From an uncultured virus (IMG/VR IMGVR_UViG_3300025921_000010) (lineage: Duplodnaviria > Heunggongvirae > Uroviricota > Caudoviricetes > Crassvirales): a stretch of DNA of 64,000 nucleotides. Within the stretch, counting starts at the first letter, position 1. Every line of letters begins with the position of its first letter. The notes beneath the pieces were generated by a model that saw only the letters and a program-made list of their open reading frames with translations, was not told the DNA's origin and did no database searches. The stretch is taken from IMG/VR virus record IMGVR_UViG_3300025921_000010; one strand, written 5' to 3'. Below, one piece after another: positions 4,700 to 41,507 of the stretch. The position numbers and the translations under genes were made by a program.

Positions 4700-4994
4700 G
4701 TTGGGCGCAATTAAGTGTCCAACAGTTCCATTAGTGCTTCGTTGACAGATTCTCGGTATGCTTGCATTATCTCATTTCTACCCCAGCCAGTTTTTGCTTG
4801 TAGTTTCTCAGCAAATATTTCTTCAATTCGTTTTAAAATTTTTTTATTCATAACAAATTTAAACTGCGCCCAACATTTCATTGGCTTAATCGGGGCTGAA
4901 CGATATGTGCTCAACGGAAGTACTTCTATTTAGCATTAGTGCAAGGCTCGGCGGACGTACTTCGATTTCCCCGCCTGCGCCAATGAGTTGACTA
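4700..4994 (+). mobile_element. satellite attC-like cassette containing a small minus-strand ORF
   Basis: GTTGGGCGCA 4700-4709 is complementary to TGCGCCCAAC 4865-4874; ~130 bp hairpin 4865-4994 resembles the array sites. Confidence 0.75.
4711..4851 (-). CDS. small hypothetical protein (cassette ORF)
   Basis: likely ATG at 4851 (MNKKILKRIEE...); the ORF track extends it to 4914. Confidence 0.6.
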   Translation of the reverse strand: MNKKILKRIEEIFAEKLQAKTGWGRNEIMQAYRESVNEALMELLDT

Positions 4995-5005
4995 TTGGGC
5001 GAAAG

Positions 5006-5254
5006 CTACCTACTTATTTCCGGCAGCATTCCTAAGTCAGCGTTTAATTGAGAAACAAATTCCCAATTCCCGGCCTCAATATCAGACAGGGCAACCCAAT
5101 CAGTTTTACCATCGTCATATTTTACCTTGTAGGCTAAACGCCAATCATGTTCTTCATCAGGTTGTACGTTTTCCAATGCAACAACTTCACAGCGTTCGCC
5201 AGCACGAAAACAATATCTGTGAACACCAACTAAATAAACTTTTTCAACCTTCAT
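5006..5254 (-). CDS. hypothetical protein
   Basis: 82 aa ORF directly downstream of the leftward promoter of module 2. Confidence 0.7.
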   Translation of the reverse strand: MKVEKVYLVGVHRYCFRAGERCEVVALENVQPDEEHDWRLAYKVKYDDGKTDWVALSDIEAGNWEFVSQLNADLGMLPEISR

Positions 5255-24996: not shown

Positions 24997-25050
24997 TTTT
25001 AATTAGTTGTTTAGAAGTTAGACGGCAGCAATACAAACGTTGTAGGCAAC

Positions 25051-25626
25051 CTACGCAACGCTCTGTAATAGTTCAGGGTTTAAGAATCGGTTTCCAATTA
25101 TCTTTTTTGATTTTACTGCTGAACCGCCAAACTGAACAGAATAACAAGCGTGGCTCTTATCGTCAATTCTTTTTAAGTGGAAGCTGCTATCACATCCATA
25201 ATCGCATATTAGTCTGATGATTGGCTTCTGTTTATCTTCGCCGAACGGATTAAACCCATTTAAAGGGTGGTCTCTAATCATTTCTTCGTGATATTCAATT
25301 TCTACAATATCATCTTCATATAATTCAATGCCATTGTATTTTTGATTAGAGAATTGGCATTTTGCAACTATTGAATATCCTGTGAGCCTTTCACATTGTG
25401 TTTTACATTCGCCATTGAATATTTGCGAGTAATCAAACACGATTGAACACATTCTTCCTGTTTCTTCATGTTGGAAAATATATTTGAATTTAATTTCACG
25501 GCTCTGAAACAGGCTGCCTACAACATTCGTATTTGCGTTAGGCTGGCTGACCTGCTGATTTTGAGCAGTTGAATTGCTATCAGCTTCGGTTTCGGCTGAA
25601 AGTTCGTTGATGTTACTATTATTCAT
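25051..25626 (-). CDS. YopX-family protein with attC-encoded leader (cassette 1)
   Basis: REIKFK, ELYEDDIV, IIGNRFLNPELL. Confidence 0.8.
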   Translation of the reverse strand: MNNSNINELSAETEADSNSTAQNQQVSQPNANTNVVGSLFQSREIKFKYIFQHEETGRMCSIVFDYSQIFNGECKTQCERLTGYSIVAKCQFSNQKYNGIELYEDDIVEIEYHEEMIRDHPLNGFNPFGEDKQKPIIRLICDYGCDSSFHLKRIDDKSHACYSVQFGGSAVKSKKIIGNRFLNPELLQSVA

Positions 25627-25707
25627 ATTTTGAAGTTTTGTTTTTTAATTTAGCTGACGTTCGGGCGAAAAGTTCTTTTATCCAGCCCAAACGCAAATAC
25701 GTGGTCG
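25515..25707 (+). repeat. attC-like site 1 (long class)
   Basis: TGCCTACAAC ... CGTATTTGCGTT/AACGCAAATACG ... C-GTT. Confidence 0.85.
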
Positions 25708-25719
25708 TTAGCAGTAACC

Positions 25720-26031
25720 TTATGCGACAATGTACAAATCATCCATAGTTCGCAAACCTTCAGCACCATCGTATTCTTCAACTTGAAATGCCGTGCCAAT
25801 AGGTAGCCAATGAATTCGCAAATCAGAAGCACCCCCACAATAAACATCTTCAATTCCTAAATTTTCTTTTATCCAATCTTCATCAATTTGGTCAGCTTTT
25901 CCTTTCTCTACCATTTCGACAATTTTAGGGCTAAATAATAATTGCTCATTGCTATTCCAAGAATACCAACCTGCACCAAACCCGTGTGAGATAAGCACGG
26001 CAACTTTTCCATCTCTAATTACTTTTTCCAT
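25720..26031 (-). CDS. conserved phage hypothetical protein (cassette 2)
   Basis: GKVAVLISHGFGAGWYSW, EEYDGAE. Confidence 0.75.
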   Translation of the reverse strand: MEKVIRDGKVAVLISHGFGAGWYSWNSNEQLLFSPKIVEMVEKGKADQIDEDWIKENLGIEDVYCGGASDLRIHWLPIGTAFQVEEYDGAEGLRTMDDLYIVA

Positions 26032-26069
26032 TTTTATATTTGTTTTTTTTACGCTGACCGAAAAAAGGC

Positions 26070-26198
26070 TACTGCTAACATTGCATTGCCAAAATTGGGG
26101 CAGACGTGGTTAATTTAAACTTTTGTACTACTATTAAACTTCATTGCTAAATTGAACATTTGGTTTTCAAAATCCCCAACTTCGGCAATGCTTCAACG
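26070..26198 (+). repeat. attC-like site 2 (129 bp)
   Basis: TACTGCTAAC complements GTTAGCAGTA at 25707; arms GCATTGCCAAAATTGGGG / CCCCAACTTCGGCAATGC. Confidence 0.88.
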
Positions 26199-26210
26199 TT
26201 ATAGGGGCAT

Positions 26211-26432
26211 TTAAAGAGCCTGCGTAACCATATCGGATTTATTTTTAACTATTTCATACTTCCCGTTAAAGGGGTAGAAATTTTCACCTTTATCACCATA
26301 ACCTATAGCCTTCATTATCCCATCAGTTCCCATAATAAAATCTGCGGCATCACCACCAACCCATAGTTGAGACTGAAATCTTTTAGTTCCATCTTTTAAA
26401 GTTCCGATATGTAGTAATTTAATTTTGTTCAT
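26211..26432 (-). CDS. hypothetical protein (cassette 3)
   Basis: likely start MNKIKLL at 26432. Confidence 0.65.
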   Translation of the reverse strand: MNKIKLLHIGTLKDGTKRFQSQLWVGGDAADFIMGTDGIMKAIGYGDKGENFYPFNGKYEIVKNKSDMVTQAL

Positions 26433-26448
26433 CGTGTTGTAAATAAAC

Positions 26449-26577
26449 GCCCTATAACATTGCATTGCAGCAAGTGGGGCAGACGGAAGTTAATAATCTG
26501 TTGTTCGTTGTTCAGCTTTAGTTCTTGTGCTGGGCAGACGGAGCGCTGAATATCCCACCTGCTGCAATGCTTCAACG
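26449..26577 (+). repeat. attC-like site 3 (129 bp; interior identical to site 11)
   Basis: CCCTATAAC complements GTTATAGGG at 26198. Confidence 0.88.
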
Positions 26578-26587
26578 TTATCGGCGA

Positions 26588-26962
26588 TTAGACACGAGCT
26601 TCGTCATTAATCGGAGCCGCATCTTCATAAAAACCACCATTAAGAACGTGTATATATTGCGCTTCTGAAAGGCAATCAAAAGACAACCTTGCACCACCTT
26701 TTAAATGTATTTTAGATGTTTCAAAATTTATTAGTTCGATTTGAGAATATGAGCAGCCAGTATCAATTTCTGTTTCATAAAATATCTTTTTCCATTGATT
26801 TTTAGTTGGCCGGTATTTTCTACTTTTAGAAGGTTGTACCATCACAAAACCGCCGATAACATGCCGTTTTGCACAAGCAGGGCTGACGTGCGAATTATCA
26901 GCAGCAGAATCATTATTCGGCTTCTGTTCCGGCTTGACGTTCTCTATTTTGCTTAAAATCAT
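26588..26962 (-). CDS. hypothetical protein with attC-encoded leader (cassette 4)
   Basis: start codon lies inside site 4. Confidence 0.65.
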   Translation of the reverse strand: MILSKIENVKPEQKPNNDSAADNSHVSPACAKRHVIGGFVMVQPSKSRKYRPTKNQWKKIFYETEIDTGCSYSQIELINFETSKIHLKGGARLSFDCLSEAQYIHVLNGGFYEDAAPINDEARV

Positions 26963-27044
26963 AATCTCAACTATTTGTTTATTTACTGTACTTTAGTTCA
27001 GGCAGAAGTTTTTCAATTGCCCTGCCATCGGCAATACCTGGCCG
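26851..27044 (+). repeat. attC-like site 4 (long class, partly mismatched arms)
   Basis: CGCCGATAAC complements GTTATCGGCG at 26577. Confidence 0.82.
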
Positions 27045-27061
27045 TTATCGGAAAGGGGAAG

Positions 27062-27340
27062 CTATTCCGCAGCTTCATAAGTCTTTTCAAAAATATCTGG
27101 CTTGCAAGGGTAGAACTCACAGTTTATACCTTTGATAATCCAATCATTAACTTTACCTATCATTATCCCTTCAAGTGTTTTTATTTGAAGATATGCGCCA
27201 GTGGGATTATCTTCTGACGGTTCAAGAACAGGACTTTCTATTATTAAATCATTTGAGAACTGTTTTATCTCATGTCCGTTGTGACCTGTGTATTGAATAG
27301 CTTCAATAACAACTGGCTTTTTTTTGAATTTCTGTATCAT
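27062..27340 (-). CDS. conserved phage protein (cassette 5)
   Basis: KFKKKPVVIEAIQY...IKTLEG...EFYPCKPDIFEKTYE; likely start 27340. Confidence 0.8.
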   Translation of the reverse strand: MIQKFKKKPVVIEAIQYTGHNGHEIKQFSNDLIIESPVLEPSEDNPTGAYLQIKTLEGIMIGKVNDWIIKGINCEFYPCKPDIFEKTYEAAE

Positions 27341-27377
27341 ATTTTTTGTTTTTAAAGTTTCTAAAATTTTGCCGCCC

Positions 27378-27505
27378 TTCCGATAACAGCCCGTTTTGCG
27401 CAAGCAGGGCAGACCTGCTAAAATCAACTTCATCTCGCTATTTTGCTTTCGTGCTTTGCTGGGCAGAAGTACTTTTAATTCCTGCCGTGCGCAAAGCGGA
27501 AAACG
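27378..27505 (+). repeat. attC-like site 5 (128 bp)
   Basis: TTCCGATAAC complements GTTATCGGAA at 27044. Confidence 0.86.
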
Positions 27506-27512
27506 TTGCACG

Positions 27513-27959
27513 CTACCTATTCGATAGGGTTGACAAATATTCTTGCTCTGTTGCAGGGAGCCATCCAGAATATGAATAACTGCAATTTTGTAATGGTGAA
27601 ATATAACTATCAGCGCAAAAAATATGTGCTGAATCATCGCGCCATTCACCATTTCCAGCACTAAAATGCTTTTTCACTTTTAGGTAAACATCTGGCAATG
27701 GATTGTCGGCACCATCTACCATGTCTGTTTGCTTTACATACGCTGGCATATCTTCTACTTTCCTTTTTTCCCACCACCCCAGTTCTTTAAACAGATGTGG
27801 GAAGTCAGATATTTTCCAAACAATACCTTCGCTTTCATCTTCATCATTAACATACCTACACCAATCTCTATCCAAAATTGAACCTACTTCATAGTTTCTG
27901 TTATTAGGGAAAGCGGCAATTACTTCCCACCTTTTTTTTAATAATTCTTCGTTTGACAT
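27513..27959 (-). CDS. hypothetical protein (cassette 6)
   Basis: likely start MSNEELLKK at 27959. Confidence 0.7.
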   Translation of the reverse strand: MSNEELLKKRWEVIAAFPNNRNYEVGSILDRDWCRYVNDEDESEGIVWKISDFPHLFKELGWWEKRKVEDMPAYVKQTDMVDGADNPLPDVYLKVKKHFSAGNGEWRDDSAHIFCADSYISPLQNCSYSYSGWLPATEQEYLSTLSNR

Positions 27960-28002
27960 TTTGTGTTTATTTAAAAGTTTATAATTCAAAGTCTGAAATT
28001 GC

Positions 28003-28131
28003 AGCGTGCAACAATCGGTTTTCTGATACGGGGGCTGACGAATAAATTCTGAACATTTTTTCCTATATTCATCAGTAGTGCTTTCATCGGCTGACGTTCC
28101 CTGATTCCCCGCATCAGAAAGCCTCCGGACG
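28003..28131 (+). repeat. attC-like site 6 (129 bp)
   Basis: AGCGTGCAAC complements GTTGCACGCT at 27505. Confidence 0.88.
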
Positions 28132-28398
28132 TTAGGCGCCATTTGACGACCAGATAATGCCTGATACTTTCCATGCAGTTTTAGCACTCAACCGCCAACT
28201 GTATAACCATTGCCAAGCAGTAGGTTTATCAATCCCTTCATAGTAGTTGCTTGTACCCCATAACTTAAAAAAGCAGATTAAACGGCGTATAACAAGGGGT
28301 TTGGCAATACTTGGGCAGACGGAATAAACCTCATCATTTGTAGTGCTATTAGGCTTTTGTTCCGGCTTGACATTAACTATTGAGCTATGTGCTTTCAT
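28132..28398 (-). CDS. hypothetical protein with attC-encoded leader (cassette 7)
   Basis: stop TAA overlaps the GTTA core; start lies inside site 7. Confidence 0.6.
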   Translation of the reverse strand: MKAHSSIVNVKPEQKPNSTTNDEVYSVCPSIAKPLVIRRLICFFKLWGTSNYYEGIDKPTAWQWLYSWRLSAKTAWKVSGIIWSSNGA

Positions 28399-28477
28399 TC
28401 AACTTTGGTTTTTTAATTTTACATTTGTTACGGCCTGACGAGCCTTGATTTCCCAAGCATCGCCAAGCCCCGATACG
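28284..28477 (+). repeat. attC-like site 7 (long class)
   Basis: GGCGTATAAC vs GTTAGGCGCC at 28131 (8/10 complementary). Confidence 0.83.
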
Positions 28478-28484
28478 TTGCCCG

Positions 28485-28913
28485 CTATTCAGTGACAGAC
28501 AGCACACGTCCAAGCGATATAATGAATATTCGACAACCTTCGTAATCCTGGAAAGAGCCAAACCATTTAGGGTTGACATCGCACAAATCAGCAAGACGAA
28601 TGCCTTTACATTCAACATCCATCTTTGGAGCGCCTTTAGCATAACCATTTTTAAAACGGACAATATCAAAGTCCTTACAGGTTTGCGAATGCCAGTAACC
28701 CTTTTTTACAAATCTATCTTTCCAGTACATTTTATCCTGCCTGTACTCTTCTTTCTTTTCGCCAGATTTAATCATATCAAACCATTTCTTAGTCAGCGTA
28801 AGATGAAGAACAGCGGGCAACATGCCGTTTTGCACAAGGCTGGCAGAAGTGCAGGATTCAGCAGCAGTTCGTTTATCTGCTTTTGTTCCGGCTTTTAGTT
28901 CATTATTTTGCAT
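28485..28913 (-). CDS. ASCH/PUA-like domain protein (cassette 8)
   Basis: LHLTLTKKWFDMIKSGEKKEEYR, VRFKNGY. Confidence 0.82.
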   Translation of the reverse strand: MQNNELKAGTKADKRTAAESCTSASLVQNGMLPAVLHLTLTKKWFDMIKSGEKKEEYRQDKMYWKDRFVKKGYWHSQTCKDFDIVRFKNGYAKGAPKMDVECKGIRLADLCDVNPKWFGSFQDYEGCRIFIISLGRVLSVTE

Positions 28914-29006
28914 TAGAATATATTTTTAAAGTTTTTATTCGTTTACTGTGCAGACGTTCCGGCGAAACGTTCTTTTAATCCAGCCCTGCGCAAAGCGGGC
29001 TGACCG
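28812..29006 (+). repeat. attC-like site 8 (long class)
   Basis: AGCGGGCAAC complements GTTGCCCGCT at 28477. Confidence 0.85.
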
Positions 29007-29018
29007 TTATAGGAAATT

Positions 29019-29279
29019 TTATTTTTTCCCACGCTCGGCAATGTGGTTAATAGCCATTTTAGCAACTTCTTCCATTTTATCTTTTGCTTCTTTTTCGGTG
29101 TCCCAACCTGTAAAATTTTCATTTATATCAAATGATAGCATTAGTTTGTGAATATCTCCATCACGCAAAAGATACATTAGTGATGTCCATTTACTTGTTT
29201 CTTTGTGTTGAACTGCCGTTATCAAAATGTCTCCATTTGGGTAGTTACTTGCAATTTCTAAAGCTGTTATTAAGTTCAT
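29019..29279 (-). CDS. hypothetical protein (cassette 9)
   Basis: likely start MNLITALE at 29279. Confidence 0.65.
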   Translation of the reverse strand: MNLITALEIASNYPNGDILITAVQHKETSKWTSLMYLLRDGDIHKLMLSFDINENFTGWDTEKEAKDKMEEVAKMAINHIAERGKK

Positions 29280-29317
29280 ATTTTCGTTATTAAAGCCAAC
29301 CCACAAAAAATAAAACT

Positions 29318-29409
29318 ATCCTATAACAAGCGGTTGGCAATATGCCACAGGATAGTGCGTGTATTGAAATTTAGTCCGTTGAAGTGGCACATCGCCAACC
29401 GCCTCAACG
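29318..29409 (+). repeat. attC-like site 9 (92 bp)
   Basis: TCCTATAAC complements GTTATAGGA at 29006; arms GCGGTTGGCAATATGCCAC / GTGGCACATCGCCAACCGC. Confidence 0.88.
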
Positions 29410-29637
29410 TTATCGGAAATATTTAACCCTTTTATTTGAGCAATCTTCACTACAAACAGGGTCACAGTTTTCTAAATCTATTTGAGACAGTCCTGTATCT
29501 TTGCCACATACAACGCAGATTGCACTTCCGATAACAAGTGCATTGGCGGCTACTTGGGCAGGCGGAATAACATCAGCTTCCGGTACTTTAATCGGCTCCC
29601 GTTCGGGCTTACCTACTCCAATCAACTTTAGATTCAT
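29410..29637 (-). CDS. small Cys-rich (zinc-ribbon-like) protein, about half encoded by the attC (cassette 10)
   Basis: CVVC...CSEDC; stop lies in the core site. Confidence 0.6.
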   Translation of the reverse strand: MNLKLIGVGKPEREPIKVPEADVIPPAQVAANALVIGSAICVVCGKDTGLSQIDLENCDPVCSEDCSNKRVKYFR

Positions 29638-29719
29638 AATATTTAGTTTTTGTTTGTTTACTGTACTTTTGTTCCGGCGAAATGTTCTCTATTTCCCAAG
29701 CATCGCCAATGCCTGGACG
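29526..29719 (+). repeat. attC-like site 10 (long class)
   Basis: TTCCGATAAC complements GTTATCGGAA at 29409. Confidence 0.84.
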
Positions 29720-29731
29720 TAAGGCGCAAGG

Positions 29732-29980
29732 CTACGACACAACAAGTGCTGCGACCTTTTCTTTTAGTTTATTGTATTCTGACCGATAAATCTCTTTTGA
29801 CTTTTCATAAGCATTCAAAAGATGATTGTAAGTCGCAAACTTTATTTCATCTTCTAATGACATATCCGAGCCATCGTTACCTTCGTTTGTACAAGGATAT
29901 TTCGCATCAAAATATTCCCTGTAAACATCAAGTGTTGGAATGAGTGCTTGTGCTTCCAACTCAATAAAAATTTTACTCAT
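29732..29980 (-). CDS. hypothetical protein (cassette 11)
   Basis: 82 aa ORF between GTAAGGCGCA and TGCGCCTTAC. Confidence 0.68.
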   Translation of the reverse strand: MSKIFIELEAQALIPTLDVYREYFDAKYPCTNEGNDGSDMSLEDEIKFATYNHLLNAYEKSKEIYRSEYNKLKEKVAALVVS

Positions 29981-30004
29981 AATTTATTTTAATTTGCCCG
30001 ACCC

Positions 30005-30133
30005 TGCGCCTTACATTGCATTGCAGCAAGTGGGGCAGACGGAAGTTAATAATCTGTTGTTCGTTGTTCAGCTTTAGTTCTTGTGCTGGGCAGACGGAGC
30101 GCTGAATATCCCACCTGCTGCAATGCTTCAACG
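30005..30133 (+). repeat. attC-like site 11 (129 bp)
   Basis: TGCGCCTTAC complements GTAAGGCGCA at 29719; 30013-30137 is identical to 26457-26581. Confidence 0.88.
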
Positions 30134-31117
30134 TTATGGGCAAGCTACCAGTCGTCTCCGTTCGGGATTGTATTCGTAATCCGACCAACTACAACTTTTG
30201 AATGTTGCCCTATGATTTACCCACCGCGTAAATGCTTTTTGGTAGCCATCGTCTCTTTTGTAAGGCATGACAAACGGCATTGCTCCCATTTCTCTAAGTG
30301 TCATTACCCGCTCCATGTCCTGATCAGGCGTTGTATCAAATCCAATCAGTACAAAAAACTGCATGTGTTTCGTTGGTATGCCAGCCTTTACGCAGCGTTC
30401 AATTCCAGATTTAACAATCTTGCCGTCTTTATATTTATCCCAGGCAAACGTTAGATACTTCTGATTGAACTTTGAATTTTGAAAATTACATTTTGCCAAT
30501 AGTTCTGCCTGTTCATCAGTTATAATTCGAATATTCAGCCCTTGCACAAAGCAAACTTTCAATTTCAATTCAATTATCCTTTCAAGGTTCACTTTCCAAT
30601 CGGTGCCGCCAAAGAAGTCGTTATCTAAAAGCATTAATCTATTGCCACCGTTAGGGTTGATAAGTATTTCATCAATCGTGTTATAATTCTTTGGTCTACC
30701 TTCTTTTTTTGGCACACAACAGAATTTGCAGGCAAAGCGGCAACCCTTCATACTAAACCCTAAATGATAATTGCAGTTAGGATAAAGAGAATAAGAAGGC
30801 GTTGCCCCTTCTATTTCTTCAGGCAAGCGGTTAAAGAAATCAATACCAGTACCACCGATCACAGCGTTTGGCGGCATTTGCGGCATTGGGGTAAAGGCAA
30901 AGATTTTGCTCATGTAAATCTTATCGTAAGTTTCGGCAAACATCAATCCATCGTACCAGCGAACTTCATCACCTAAAGCCTCATGGTAGCCGCAAATTTT
31001 CATTATTGCAAGGTTGGGTATCTTGCCATCCAAAGCAGCTACTCCGATTGCCCGCCTGCCCATAACATTGGTATTGCTGCTATGTGGGCTGACGGAAGTA
31101 ATTGAGCTTTTGTTCAT
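30134..31117 (-). CDS. radical SAM protein with attC-encoded leader (cassette 12)
   Basis: CxxxCxxC motif (GCRFACKFC), PNLAIMK, LLDNDF. Confidence 0.88.
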   Translation of the reverse strand: MNKSSITSVSPHSSNTNVMGRRAIGVAALDGKIPNLAIMKICGYHEALGDEVRWYDGLMFAETYDKIYMSKIFAFTPMPQMPPNAVIGGTGIDFFNRLPEEIEGATPSYSLYPNCNYHLGFSMKGCRFACKFCCVPKKEGRPKNYNTIDEILINPNGGNRLMLLDNDFFGGTDWKVNLERIIELKLKVCFVQGLNIRIITDEQAELLAKCNFQNSKFNQKYLTFAWDKYKDGKIVKSGIERCVKAGIPTKHMQFFVLIGFDTTPDQDMERVMTLREMGAMPFVMPYKRDDGYQKAFTRWVNHRATFKSCSWSDYEYNPERRRLVACP

Positions 31118-31185
31118 TTTATTATCTTTAGTAAGTTATTCGGCTGACGTGCTTCGATTTCCCACACATCAGCAATACCCGTCCG
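31057..31185 (+). repeat. attC-like site 12 (129 bp)
   Basis: TGCCCATAAC complements GTTATGGGCA at 30133. Confidence 0.87.
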
Positions 31186-31461
31186 TTATCTTATTATAAA
31201 TTTTAAAGTGTGTAATATCCTTGCCGCCTCTCTTAATGTCTCGTTCGTAAATCTTAACCCGGTGGCCCGGCACTCTCTTACTAATTCTGTTTTTAGTTCT
31301 TCTGGTAAATCTTCAATCTTTTTCATTCCTTCGTTTAAAAATAACTGGTACCTTCTTAATAGAACTCTTTTAGGGACTGCACTTGTAATCAAAAAATCTA
31401 ACATGCTTTTCTCTCTTTGGTACATTTCAGAAAACCTGGCTGATATTTCTATTTCAATCAT
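31186..31461 (-). CDS. hypothetical protein (backbone; its stop codon forms the array boundary)
   Basis: coupled to the DnaC-like gene. Confidence 0.65.
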   Translation of the reverse strand: MIEIEISARFSEMYQREKSMLDFLITSAVPKRVLLRRYQLFLNEGMKKIEDLPEELKTELVRECRATGLRFTNETLREAARILHTLKFIIR

Positions 31462-38213: not shown

Positions 38214-38579
38214 TCAGCTTAATAATTCAGGGTTGTCGTGAATGTTTCCAATTACTTTTCTTCTTTCGTCATTTTCTAAAAACTGGTAAAGAGAATATTG
38301 GTAAGTAGGAAATTTTATTACCCATTTATCTTCAAACCAACTTACAACTCCAATTGCTGTTTTATTAGTATTATTGAAAATGTCGGCTTCGTAAATTTCT
38401 TTTCCTTTGCCGTTCTTATCTCTTAAGCCTGTGTATTGCATTACAATCGCGTCTGTACGAATATTTTGAAAAAAGAATCGCAGATAATCCCATTCTGAAT
38501 AATTCATTTCATTAACATAAGCATCGGAATAAAGCATTACACCGTCGTCCCATGTTCTGAATTTTATTTCTCTTTTCAT
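38214..38579 (-). CDS. YopX-family protein
   Basis: MKREIKFR, MQYTGLRDKNG, VIGNIHDNPELL. Confidence 0.9.
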   Translation of the reverse strand: MKREIKFRTWDDGVMLYSDAYVNEMNYSEWDYLRFFFQNIRTDAIVMQYTGLRDKNGKGKEIYEADIFNNTNKTAIGVVSWFEDKWVIKFPTYQYSLYQFLENDERRKVIGNIHDNPELLS

Positions 38580-41257: not shown

Positions 41258-41507
41258 CAAAAGTTCAAACAAAAGTTCAAACAAAATGGCCCAAAAAACA
41301 CGCAAAAATGAAGAAAATAAAAAATCGTGATATTGATTATCAATAAGTTAGATAAATAAAATGCACTACCTGCAGCTTCCCAAGCTGTAGGTAGCGGGTT
41401 CGAGTCCCGTCTTCCGCTCTTTTTAAACTCAATACCAGCAAGGATTTTAGGAAAATAAAAGAAATTAAAAAATGAAAAAAATATCAAACTCAAACAAAAG
41501 TTCAAAC
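41258..41507 (+). other. attP with a tRNA-Gly(CCC) 3'-half core (about 41372-41419)
   Basis: GCAGC-TTCCCAA-GCTGT anticodon arm, GGTTCGAGTCC T-arm, no 5' half; CAAAAGTTCAAAC arm repeats on both sides; IHF-like TATCAATAAGTTA 41338-41350. Confidence 0.85.

Follow-up and report, generated by a model that had tools for sequence, protein, structure and literature searches.

An integron-like cassette array of a Bacteroidota prophage, with attC-like hairpin loops as likely start sites of leader-fused genes

The array and its attC-like sites

We analyzed the 64,000-nt stretch of DNA IMGVR_UViG_3300025921_000010 (the whole stretch is hereafter called the window), a prophage or viral contig that carries an array of small genes separated by attC-like hairpin sites. 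Its late genes lie on the plus strand and its early genes on the minus strand, between about 40.4 and 22.4 kb, and this early region encodes an ERF-type annealing protein (ERF), a DNA methylase, a DUF6291 protein, a YopX protein (hereafter the backbone YopX), and a tyrosine integrase at 41472. The array occupies 31.2-25.0 kb of the minus strand and is composed of 12 small genes with 12 sites (A to L) between them, plus a terminal half-site (M). The window sites have the form (T)AAC-G, spacer, arm, loop, arm, (A/T)TG-TT, and are 87, ~124, or ~189 nt long. Six minus-strand open reading frames (ORFs) begin at an ATG in the A-rich loop of a site and cross the 3′ arm and the GTT core into the next gene, which gives them N-terminal leaders of 14-37 residues. 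We read the array as integron-like, with about 12 small gene cassettes that belong to the early operon of a Bacteroidota prophage and with leader-fused genes started by the loop ATG, and we put the probability of this reading at about 0.7.

A pattern drawn from the window sites matched 25 stretches in viral contigs, many of them with co-oriented arrays. Since a simple hairpin scan overlooked three of the 12 sites in the window, we turned to a covariance model trained on 54 aligned sites. This model recovered 11 of the 12 sites and an extra one at 4866-5000; at site C, it detected the loop alone, as a weak match (E 0.64). Matches numbered 248 overall, 121 of them in the combined set of window, 22 viral loci, and 10 other fetched loci and 127 in bacterial loci, most of which carry Bacteroidota names, with scores far higher on the sense than on the antisense strand (for example, 124.7 vs. 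28.8 bits). Within the 54 aligned sites, AAC-G and TGTT were invariant and RNAalifold returned 15 pairs, 14 of them with compensatory changes, as in attC, an imperfect inverted repeat with conserved AAC and GTT triplets whose structure is kept more than its sequence. The G.U pairs of this alignment favored folding of the sense strand, i.e., the mRNA (41 GU/UG cells vs. 3 AC/CA cells). No clear bulged (extrahelical) bases were found in the aligned sites; a conserved G.T position and a spacer asymmetry of 6 vs. 2-3 nt were seen, and these may be the equivalent of extrahelical bases. With blastn, none of 50,697 isolate phage records yielded a site of this family, and the sole match was to a conserved small gene.

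The flanks of the sites were paired from one site to the next. The 7 nt past the GTT of a site complemented the 7 nt before the AAC of the following site at no fewer than 6 of the 7 positions in 112 of 150 pairs, and the same complementarity to the site's own AAC flank was found in 8 of 150. The R'' box of site C has TAC opposite the changed core of site B, so that a change within the core triplet is compensated. The cassette ends, as in attC arrays, carry complementary core boxes, and a circular cassette would rebuild one full site. Collectively, the site architecture, the covariation, and the cassette-specific flank pairing are hallmarks of integron-type cassettes.

Reading frames that begin in the loop

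An earlier reading of this DNA, made without database searches (hereafter the sequence-only reading), had described six ORFs that start inside their attC, cross the arm and the core, and carry leaders with related endings. All six were found on the minus strand with the endings quoted. The distance from the ATG to the core G is 102 nt at sites C, I, and L, 105 nt at F, 92 nt at E, and 51 nt at A, in agreement with the four ATGs previously placed at 102-105 nt. The A content of the 20 nt 5′ of the six loop ATGs is 59%, compared with 53% at 24 backbone genes and 35% when all 153 ATG triplets of the array are taken. The leaders are hydrophilic, variable in the loop-encoded part, and conserved in the arm-encoded part, and they look alike because the DNA of the hairpin arm is conserved; depending on the cassette, one and the same arm consensus is read in any of the three frames. 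The peptide NVKPEQKPN is indeed common to two sites, I and F, and site E carries the underlying DNA motif in a different frame, which makes it a likeness of DNA and not of peptide. At the loop ATG the predicted RNA unpaired probability was 0.66, compared with 0.19 for the core, and the loop value was the higher one in 42 of 42 fused sites.

To quantify the relation between leader and cassette, we used 98 distinct related sites from viral contigs and the window, 59 of which have a frame open for at least 150 nt past the core. The loop ATG was in frame in 42 of these 59 core-crossing ORFs, vs. 19.5 ± 3.3 expected when sites and cassettes were shuffled (0 of 5000 shuffles reached 42). Independent bacterial loci gave 13 of 36 vs. 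5.5 ± 2.0 expected (P 0.0012). The longest sense ORF began in the loop at 41 of the 98 viral and window sites. Of all the tests, only two escape the bias of protein searches, and both were made on metagenome sites chosen by a 20-nt word of the 3′ arm alone (22 loci minus 2 duplicates and 1 that was too short, leaving 19). One was the analysis of ATG position and fusion: the ATG lay at 102-105 nt in 18 of these arm-word sites and at 63 nt in the other, the frame was open for at least 150 nt beyond the core in 16, and about 10 of 12 distinct bodies were fused, as judged by eye (binomial vs. 1/3, P 5e-4). The other was the count of stop codons. Over the 34 codons 5′ of the core, the leader frame was stop-free in 18 of the 19 sites and the other frames in 2 and 0, with 3, 19, and 82 stops in frames 0, 1, and 2, respectively; the A/T-rich loop-encoded part alone contained 3, 19, and 62. 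Stops at random frequency in the leader frame, which the sequence-only reading had named as an outcome that would count against it, were not what these sites showed. Such patterns in the DNA suggest that translation in cells begins at the loop ATG.

The YopX cassette allowed a comparison with leaderless homologues. The window protein scored 18 bits, vs. a gathering cut-off of 22.4 for PF09643; its leader-bearing relatives scored 45-80 bits, and position 1 of the profile fell at residue 42-46 in 6 of 15 matches. The cassette reads ..NVVGSLFQSREIKFK, with no ATG, GTG, or TTG from the core to REIKF, and the backbone YopX (38579..38214) begins MKREIKFR; the lack of a Met and the backbone start had been described before. 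A search with the cassette protein retrieved leader-bearing YopX variants that were 36-85% identical and all had ..NANTNVVGSLFxxREIKF, as well as unrelated small proteins alike in the leader only. Nine leader-bearing database relatives and the window protein have no Met from the core to REIKF, and three leaderless homologues and the backbone YopX begin with M and 0-3 residues ahead of it. The sequence-only reading had proposed to align homologues and to search proteins for the leader motif. In the alignment, similarity to leaderless YopX proteins starts six residues past the core; in the search, the 38-aa YopX leader alone matched 29 cluster representatives, in 26 of which it starts at residue 1. 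The 33 leader-bearing proteins comprised 15 YopX proteins and 18 with no Pfam family. A second leader type (I-type) heads four other bodies. One YopX protein, P0028, carries two leader types in tandem, an E-type followed by a partial L-type, which points to a hybrid site or a fusion of sites.

Of the six leader-fused cassettes of the window, only three are headless: the YopX one, the Cys-rich body of 40 aa, which has no in-cassette ATG, GTG, or TTG, and the 53-aa body, whose first in-cassette start codon (TTG) is 102 nt beyond the site F core, making it effectively headless. The idea that the site supplies an ATG and an A-rich initiation region was strengthened by the frame matching, the depletion of stops, the reuse of leaders, and the point at which YopX homology starts; the part of it that has headless genes as the recipients stands for only those three of six.

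Table 1. Sites, leader-fused ORFs, and terminal half-site of the array, with the separate site of the late-gene region
Feature	Position	Strand	Remarks
Site A	31064..31187	-	124 nt from AAC to GTT; first site; loop ATG 31117; covariance model 106.3 bits
Leader-fused ORF, radical-SAM-like	30134..31117	-	327 aa; leader of 17 residues
Site B	30012..30135	-	124 nt; 99% identical to site J; core changed to GTA; no fused leader
Site C	29533..29721	-	189 nt, long class; loop ATG 29637, 102 nt 5′ of core G
Leader-fused ORF	29410..29637	-	75 aa: 34-residue leader and 40-aa Cys-rich body
Site D	29325..29411	-	87 nt, short class; no leader into next gene
Site E	28819..29008	-	190 nt, long class; loop ATG 28913, 92 nt 5′ of core G
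Leader-fused ORF, 'ASCH-like'	28485..28913	-	142 aa
Site F	28291..28479	-	189 nt, long class; loop ATG 28398, 105 nt 5′ of core G
Leader-fused ORF	28132..28398	-	88 aa; putative 53-aa body
Site G	28010..28133	-	124 nt
Site H	27385..27507	-	123 nt; loop ATG 27433 in frame with next gene, which has its own ATG 27331
Site I	26858..27046	-	189 nt, long class; loop ATG 26962, 102 nt 5′ of core G
Leader-fused ORF, 'YRPT' cassette	26588..26962	-	124 aa
Site J	26456..26579	-	124 nt; entire site one open frame from TTG 26575
Site K	26077..26200	-	124 nt; 120.7 bits; no leader into next gene
Site L	25522..25709	-	188 nt, long class; loop ATG 25626, 102 nt 5′ of core G 25524
Leader-fused YopX ORF	25051..25626	-	191 aa; body with no start codon ahead of conserved REIKF
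Terminal half-site M	25025..25050	-	R'' box complementary to R' box of site L, spacer, ~10 nt of 5′ arm
Separate site of the same family	4866..5000	-	Late-gene region, between two small minus-strand ORFs; 52.9 bits

The individual sites and genes of Table 1 showed further features. The TAA stop of the upstream backbone gene falls within the R'' box of site A; the AAC box contains the stop codon of the upstream gene (TAA as part of ..TAAC) at 31185-31190, 30133-30138, 29409-29414, and 28131-28135, the backbone gene preceding the first site being one of these cases. The 327-aa ORF matched Pfam Radical_SAM with an E of 9.7e-6, below the Pfam cut-off, and an in-frame ATG immediately 3′ of the site A core (GTT ATG) means that its leader may be optional. 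The same holds for 28485..28913, where the core of site E reads ATG|TTG and an in-frame ATG stands at the junction (its G being the core G; MLPAVLHL..). The 'ASCH-like' label of this body is our own interpretation, as Pfam gave no family; a related body stands behind another leader in protein P0087. At site B, a site-spanning ORF ends 4 nt past the ATG of the next gene; at site J, the TGA that closes the frame overlaps the ATG of the next gene (ATGA); and at site G, the loop ORF, in the GTT frame, ends 24 nt beyond the core and 24 nt ahead of the ATG at 27962. The 89-aa cassette protein (27062-27331, MIQKFKKKPVV..) has 72-76% DNA identity to short hypothetical genes in isolate phages of many unrelated hosts (Bacillus, Streptococcus, Enterococcus, Cellulophaga, and Pasteurella). 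Half-site M has neither loop nor 3′ arm. The separate site belongs to a second, tiny cassette module (4711-5254) between plus-strand late ORFs of 770 and 373 aa; the module has minus-strand ORFs of 82 and 67 aa, and an orphan AAC box matching its site lies 164 nt downstream.

The 124-nt sites contain about three imperfect copies of a 13-nt loop motif, ACAAATGTTCAAT, with a core-like AATGTT (loop columns ~45-100 of the alignment), and many loop ATGs fall within this motif. The loop opens with a copy of CGTC(A/T)GCC, the motif that precedes the 3′ arm. Bacteroidota-type promoter motifs were not evident in the loops upon inspection by eye, the only search made for them.

The mobile unit, its recombinase, and its cargo

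The flank pairing fits two models, one with crossover at G|TT and the site 3′ of its gene, and another with crossover at AAC|G and the site 5′ of its gene. An orphan AAC box located after the last full site and one gene, and matching that site, was found in 41 of 55 arrays, vs. 13 of 46 arrays with an orphan GTT box before the first site (Fisher 3.7e-6). Past the orphan AAC box there is often a short conserved motif that lacks a 3′ arm, and half-site M is one such terminal element. Two contigs (L025 and L035, 98.9% over 5.7 kb) begin to agree exactly past the ..TAAC of a site, and the box left of this breakpoint differs between them, each matching its own preceding cassette. A block common to L023 and L025, found in different contexts, extends from one AAC box to the next AAC box, i.e., it spans a site and the gene downstream. 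The asymmetry of the terminal half-sites and the AAC|G breakpoints therefore indicate that the site precedes its ORF, and we consider it quite probable that a site and its downstream gene form one mobile unit, arranged head first. The sequence-only reading had a resident site rescuing a captured headless gene; array ends and breakpoints favor instead a cassette that brings its own start module. In classical integrons, cleavage falls at AA|C of the folded bottom strand; seen this way, the coding strand of the present sites would be the counterpart of the classical bottom strand, in keeping with the sense-strand G.T pairs (41 vs. 3 cells). The classical arrangement, with attC 3′ of the ORF and crossover at G|TT on the coding strand, was not the one observed, and the evidence is not unanimous. 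The site centers are identical while both flanks differ in B/J and in L019/L034, the block shared by L012 and L029 contains the ORF only, and a single body family was found behind several leader types, all of which speak against the head-first order. Shared-cassette blocks between arrays were few (four at 88% identity or more), and comparison of near-identical arrays differing in a single cassette gave only two clean cases.

Half-site M is proposed as the primary insertion site. The terminal half-sites share a motif past the AAC box, ..TCATAAATATACGCAA.. (e.g., L054, L084, L109, L113, L058, and L048), and beyond them lie housekeeping genes in bacterial genomes (chaperonin, Hsp70, and ribonucleotide reductase) and phage genes in viral contigs. 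At the other end, contigs of two metagenome runs (X2 and X3) join window position 25580 to 31191, and a similar arrangement was seen at L007 955-1030. In both, which represent related phages, the backbone gene is directly followed by an ATG and a 3′ half-site with no 5′ arm, and the leader is in frame with the first cassette. The matches of metagenome contigs to the window were otherwise mostly partial repeat matches, with no clean gain or loss of a cassette except this joint. Window segments left uncovered in the four metagenome runs compared, and runs of small share, were given no weight. A viral record identical to part of the window (G001) ends within the array. The neighboring helicase-loader-like gene has relatives in viral contigs and in Bacteroidota genomes, e.g., Terrimonas; two close relatives found through this gene (L002 and L003) have no array here, and an empty site was not obvious in them by eye, with no motif search made.

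The two tyrosine recombinases of the window scored 24.5 and 16.5 bits against the integron integrase model TIGR02249, whose cut-off is 265 bits. The host genomes gave two-piece matches to this model that lacked its middle, which is presumably the place of the integron-specific insert. A gene of the Phage_integrase family was found at 3.5 kb or less from the terminal element in 2 of 43 arrays, and one candidate recombinase had homologues near three loci besides its source array. A tyrosine recombinase stands 3′ of four bacterial arrays (L142 1216-2340, L048 14471-15340, L079 957-1790, and L075 12193-13044); it is ~0.3 kb or less from the terminal half-site in the first three, and in L075, where no half-site was found, it is ~2 kb beyond the site. 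The genomes behind L142, L048, and L075 are among those whose recombinases match the integron integrase model in two pieces with the middle part absent. Adjacent tyrosine recombinases were considered as the cognate enzyme and rejected, the association being too sparse. As for the cargo, the 26 fused ORFs scanned in viral loci L011-L035 included 13 N6_N4 methyltransferases, a C5 methylase, Mom, a PAPS-reductase-like protein, and DUF4326, and the cargo of the related arrays, mainly of DNA-modification or anti-restriction types and mostly DNA methyltransferases, looks like counter-defence, as judged from the methyltransferases and Mom.

Alternative explanations, proposed mechanism, and significance

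Several observations weigh against an integron-like array whose leader-fused genes start in the loop. No protein in the window, 22 viral records, or 20 host genomes exceeded the TIGR02249 cut-off. The longest sense ORF was loop-started in only 27 of 124 bacterial sites, and 37 of the 124 had no sense ORF of at least 50 aa starting nearby; the loop-started leader is frequent, not universal. Three of the six window cassettes (radical-SAM, ASCH-like, and 'YRPT') have a usable start at or just past the core; in the 'YRPT' cassette this is a GTG-ATG five codons past the core, at which leaderless homologues of the same body family begin, and this limits what can be concluded from the I-type leader. 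The sites are homologous and partly of shared ancestry, so the shuffles and binomials overstate independence, and the protein searches were seeded with leader plus body, which favors in-frame leaders. Site H was fully covered by one RNA-library contig, a weak hint of transcription for which contaminating DNA is possible.

The loop ORFs could be translated only to melt the hairpin, by coupling, with the proteins starting inside the cassettes, some at non-canonical codons, and with in-frame fusion as a tolerated side effect. We regard this as unlikely. It has a precedent, since in the part of the literature on attI1 available to us, ORF-11, ORF-17, and ORF-18 are described together with short attC ORFs that relieve the stem-loop barrier, and such translated ORFs aid cassettes with no translation initiation region, about 20% of cassettes (PMC8876359). 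In the window, the site-spanning ORFs of B, J, and G end at the next ATG or 24 nt before it, with the ATGA overlap at J, and the three cassettes with a start at or near the core also agree with coupling; an ORF of this type was not seen at A, C, E, F, I, or L, where the ORF continues. Coupling, however, predicts no preference for the cassette's own frame, and this is at odds with the 42 of 59 in-frame ATGs (19.5 expected) and with the 16 of 19 arm-word sites, of L-type, that are fused. Moreover, YopX and two methyltransferase bodies (L012:7377 and L034:1320) have no ATG, GTG, or TTG before their conserved N-terminal motifs. It is less probable still that the leaders are artefacts of ORF calling, in which G+C-rich arms that happen to lack stops let an ORF extend upstream as far as an accidental ATG, with no real start in the loop. 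The arm consensus is indeed stop-free in all three frames, gene callers favor long ORFs, and some loop ATGs belong to the repeated motif ACAAATGTTCAAT. Against this, the A/T-rich loop-encoded part is also poor in stops in the leader frame (3, 19, and 62), 18 of 19 sites have the ATG at a fixed 102-105 nt, the DNA 5′ of the ATG is no less A-rich than in real genes, and the frame matching exceeds the shuffles.

The sites themselves might not be recombination sites at all, and could be regulatory stem-loops, acting as terminators, stabilizers, or start modules, that shuffle their neighbors by homologous recombination, like the PeSL elements of T4-type phages. To this we assign a chance slightly below that of coupling. 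The failure to find an integron integrase in the window, viral records, and host genomes, the excess of G.U pairs on the mRNA strand (41 vs. 3 cells), the site centers swapped independently of both flanks, and the ERF-type annealing protein encoded by the phage are all in line with it. Homologous exchange leaves unexplained the flank complementarity of 112 of 150 pairs and the compensated core change of sites B and C, and it also leaves unexplained the AAC|G breakpoints and the terminal half-site in 41 of 55 arrays.

If the genes start in the loop of an integron-like site, as we prefer, the following mechanism may be proposed. A hairpin 5′ of the gene with which it moves would recombine at AAC|G through a site-specific enzyme. 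A start codon at the cassette boundary would be buried in the stem, and the start would therefore have moved into the A-rich unpaired loop, so that stem occlusion, as judged from the RNA folding predictions, may be what drives the loop placement. Translation initiation in Bacteroidota rarely uses Shine-Dalgarno pairing and prefers open, A-rich regions. The ribosome would start in the loop and read the 3′ arm and the core into the gene, generating the N-terminal leader. Since the leader is variable in its loop part and the arm consensus is read in three frames, it would be a tolerated by-product of the hairpin and not a functional peptide. A wider proposal, which we advance tentatively and at somewhat less than even odds, is that Bacteroidota phages and prophages have a cassette system with no integron integrase that works head first, in which a standard hairpin module of recombination site, initiation region, ATG, and leader is joined 5′ to genes that lost their start to give self-translating N-terminal fusions, these are inserted by a recombinase at a conserved half-site on the promoter-distal side of the array, and the arrays are swap libraries for anti-restriction and DNA modification. 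More speculatively, the leader sites may be a clue to how cassettes form.

Clusters of attC and parts of integrons, with methyltransferase cassettes, have already been published in phages (Qi et al. 2023, PMC9892861). As far as the available text of that work goes, the present arrays resemble integron cassettes and clusters of attC sites lacking integron-integrases (CALINs), including phage ones, in their imperfect inverted repeats, whose cores are AAC and GTT and whose arms covary, their co-oriented, small, promoterless-looking genes with stops often in the AAC box, their orphan DNA methyltransferases, and the lack of an integrase in the phage. Unlike in those systems, the sites here probably lie 5′ and not 3′ of the gene with which they move, the arrays end in a conserved half-site, and the sites are 87-190 nt long with an asymmetric spacer of 6 vs. 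2-3 nt and an R box of ~10-11 bp. The attI1 ORF-11 type, in the portion of PMC8876359 considered here, is similar in that a recombination site carries an initiation region and a short ORF across the crossover point; there, the peptide ends, the gene re-initiates, and the module is in the platform site, whereas here the ORF runs in frame into the gene and the module is in every long attC-like site, conserved across many cassettes. Cassette translation has been described to shape the expression of whole arrays, at least in the accessible part of PMC11511950. As with T4-type PeSL elements in what was available of PMC2839356 and PMC4122927, repeated stem-loop or expression modules flank small variable genes in hyperplastic phage regions; unlike those elements, which are promoter-terminator motifs with homologous exchange, the present sites show flank pairing and breakpoints at a conserved triplet. 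In-frame leaders from attC loops, or attC 5′ of the ORF, were not found in the literature searched, which was that outside subscription journals and supplements.

In integron biology, attC is viewed as a recombination signal on the 3′ side that impedes translation of the cassette after it, and the origin of cassettes is still an open question. In this widespread family of sites, the hairpin would double as the 5′ expression module of the gene, and dozens of unrelated proteins would share an N-terminus dictated by DNA structure. This yields a testable design rule, that the start codon is in the loop because the stem occludes the boundary, and a warning for annotators that the shared N-termini here are not protein domains. 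It also suggests that cassette formation here joins a standard site to 5′-truncated genes. Finally, with its counter-defence-looking cargo, the array points to an unexplored gene-shuffling system in phages of the Bacteroidetes, a phylum in which integrons have been reported as rare, according to the available part of PMC9024848.

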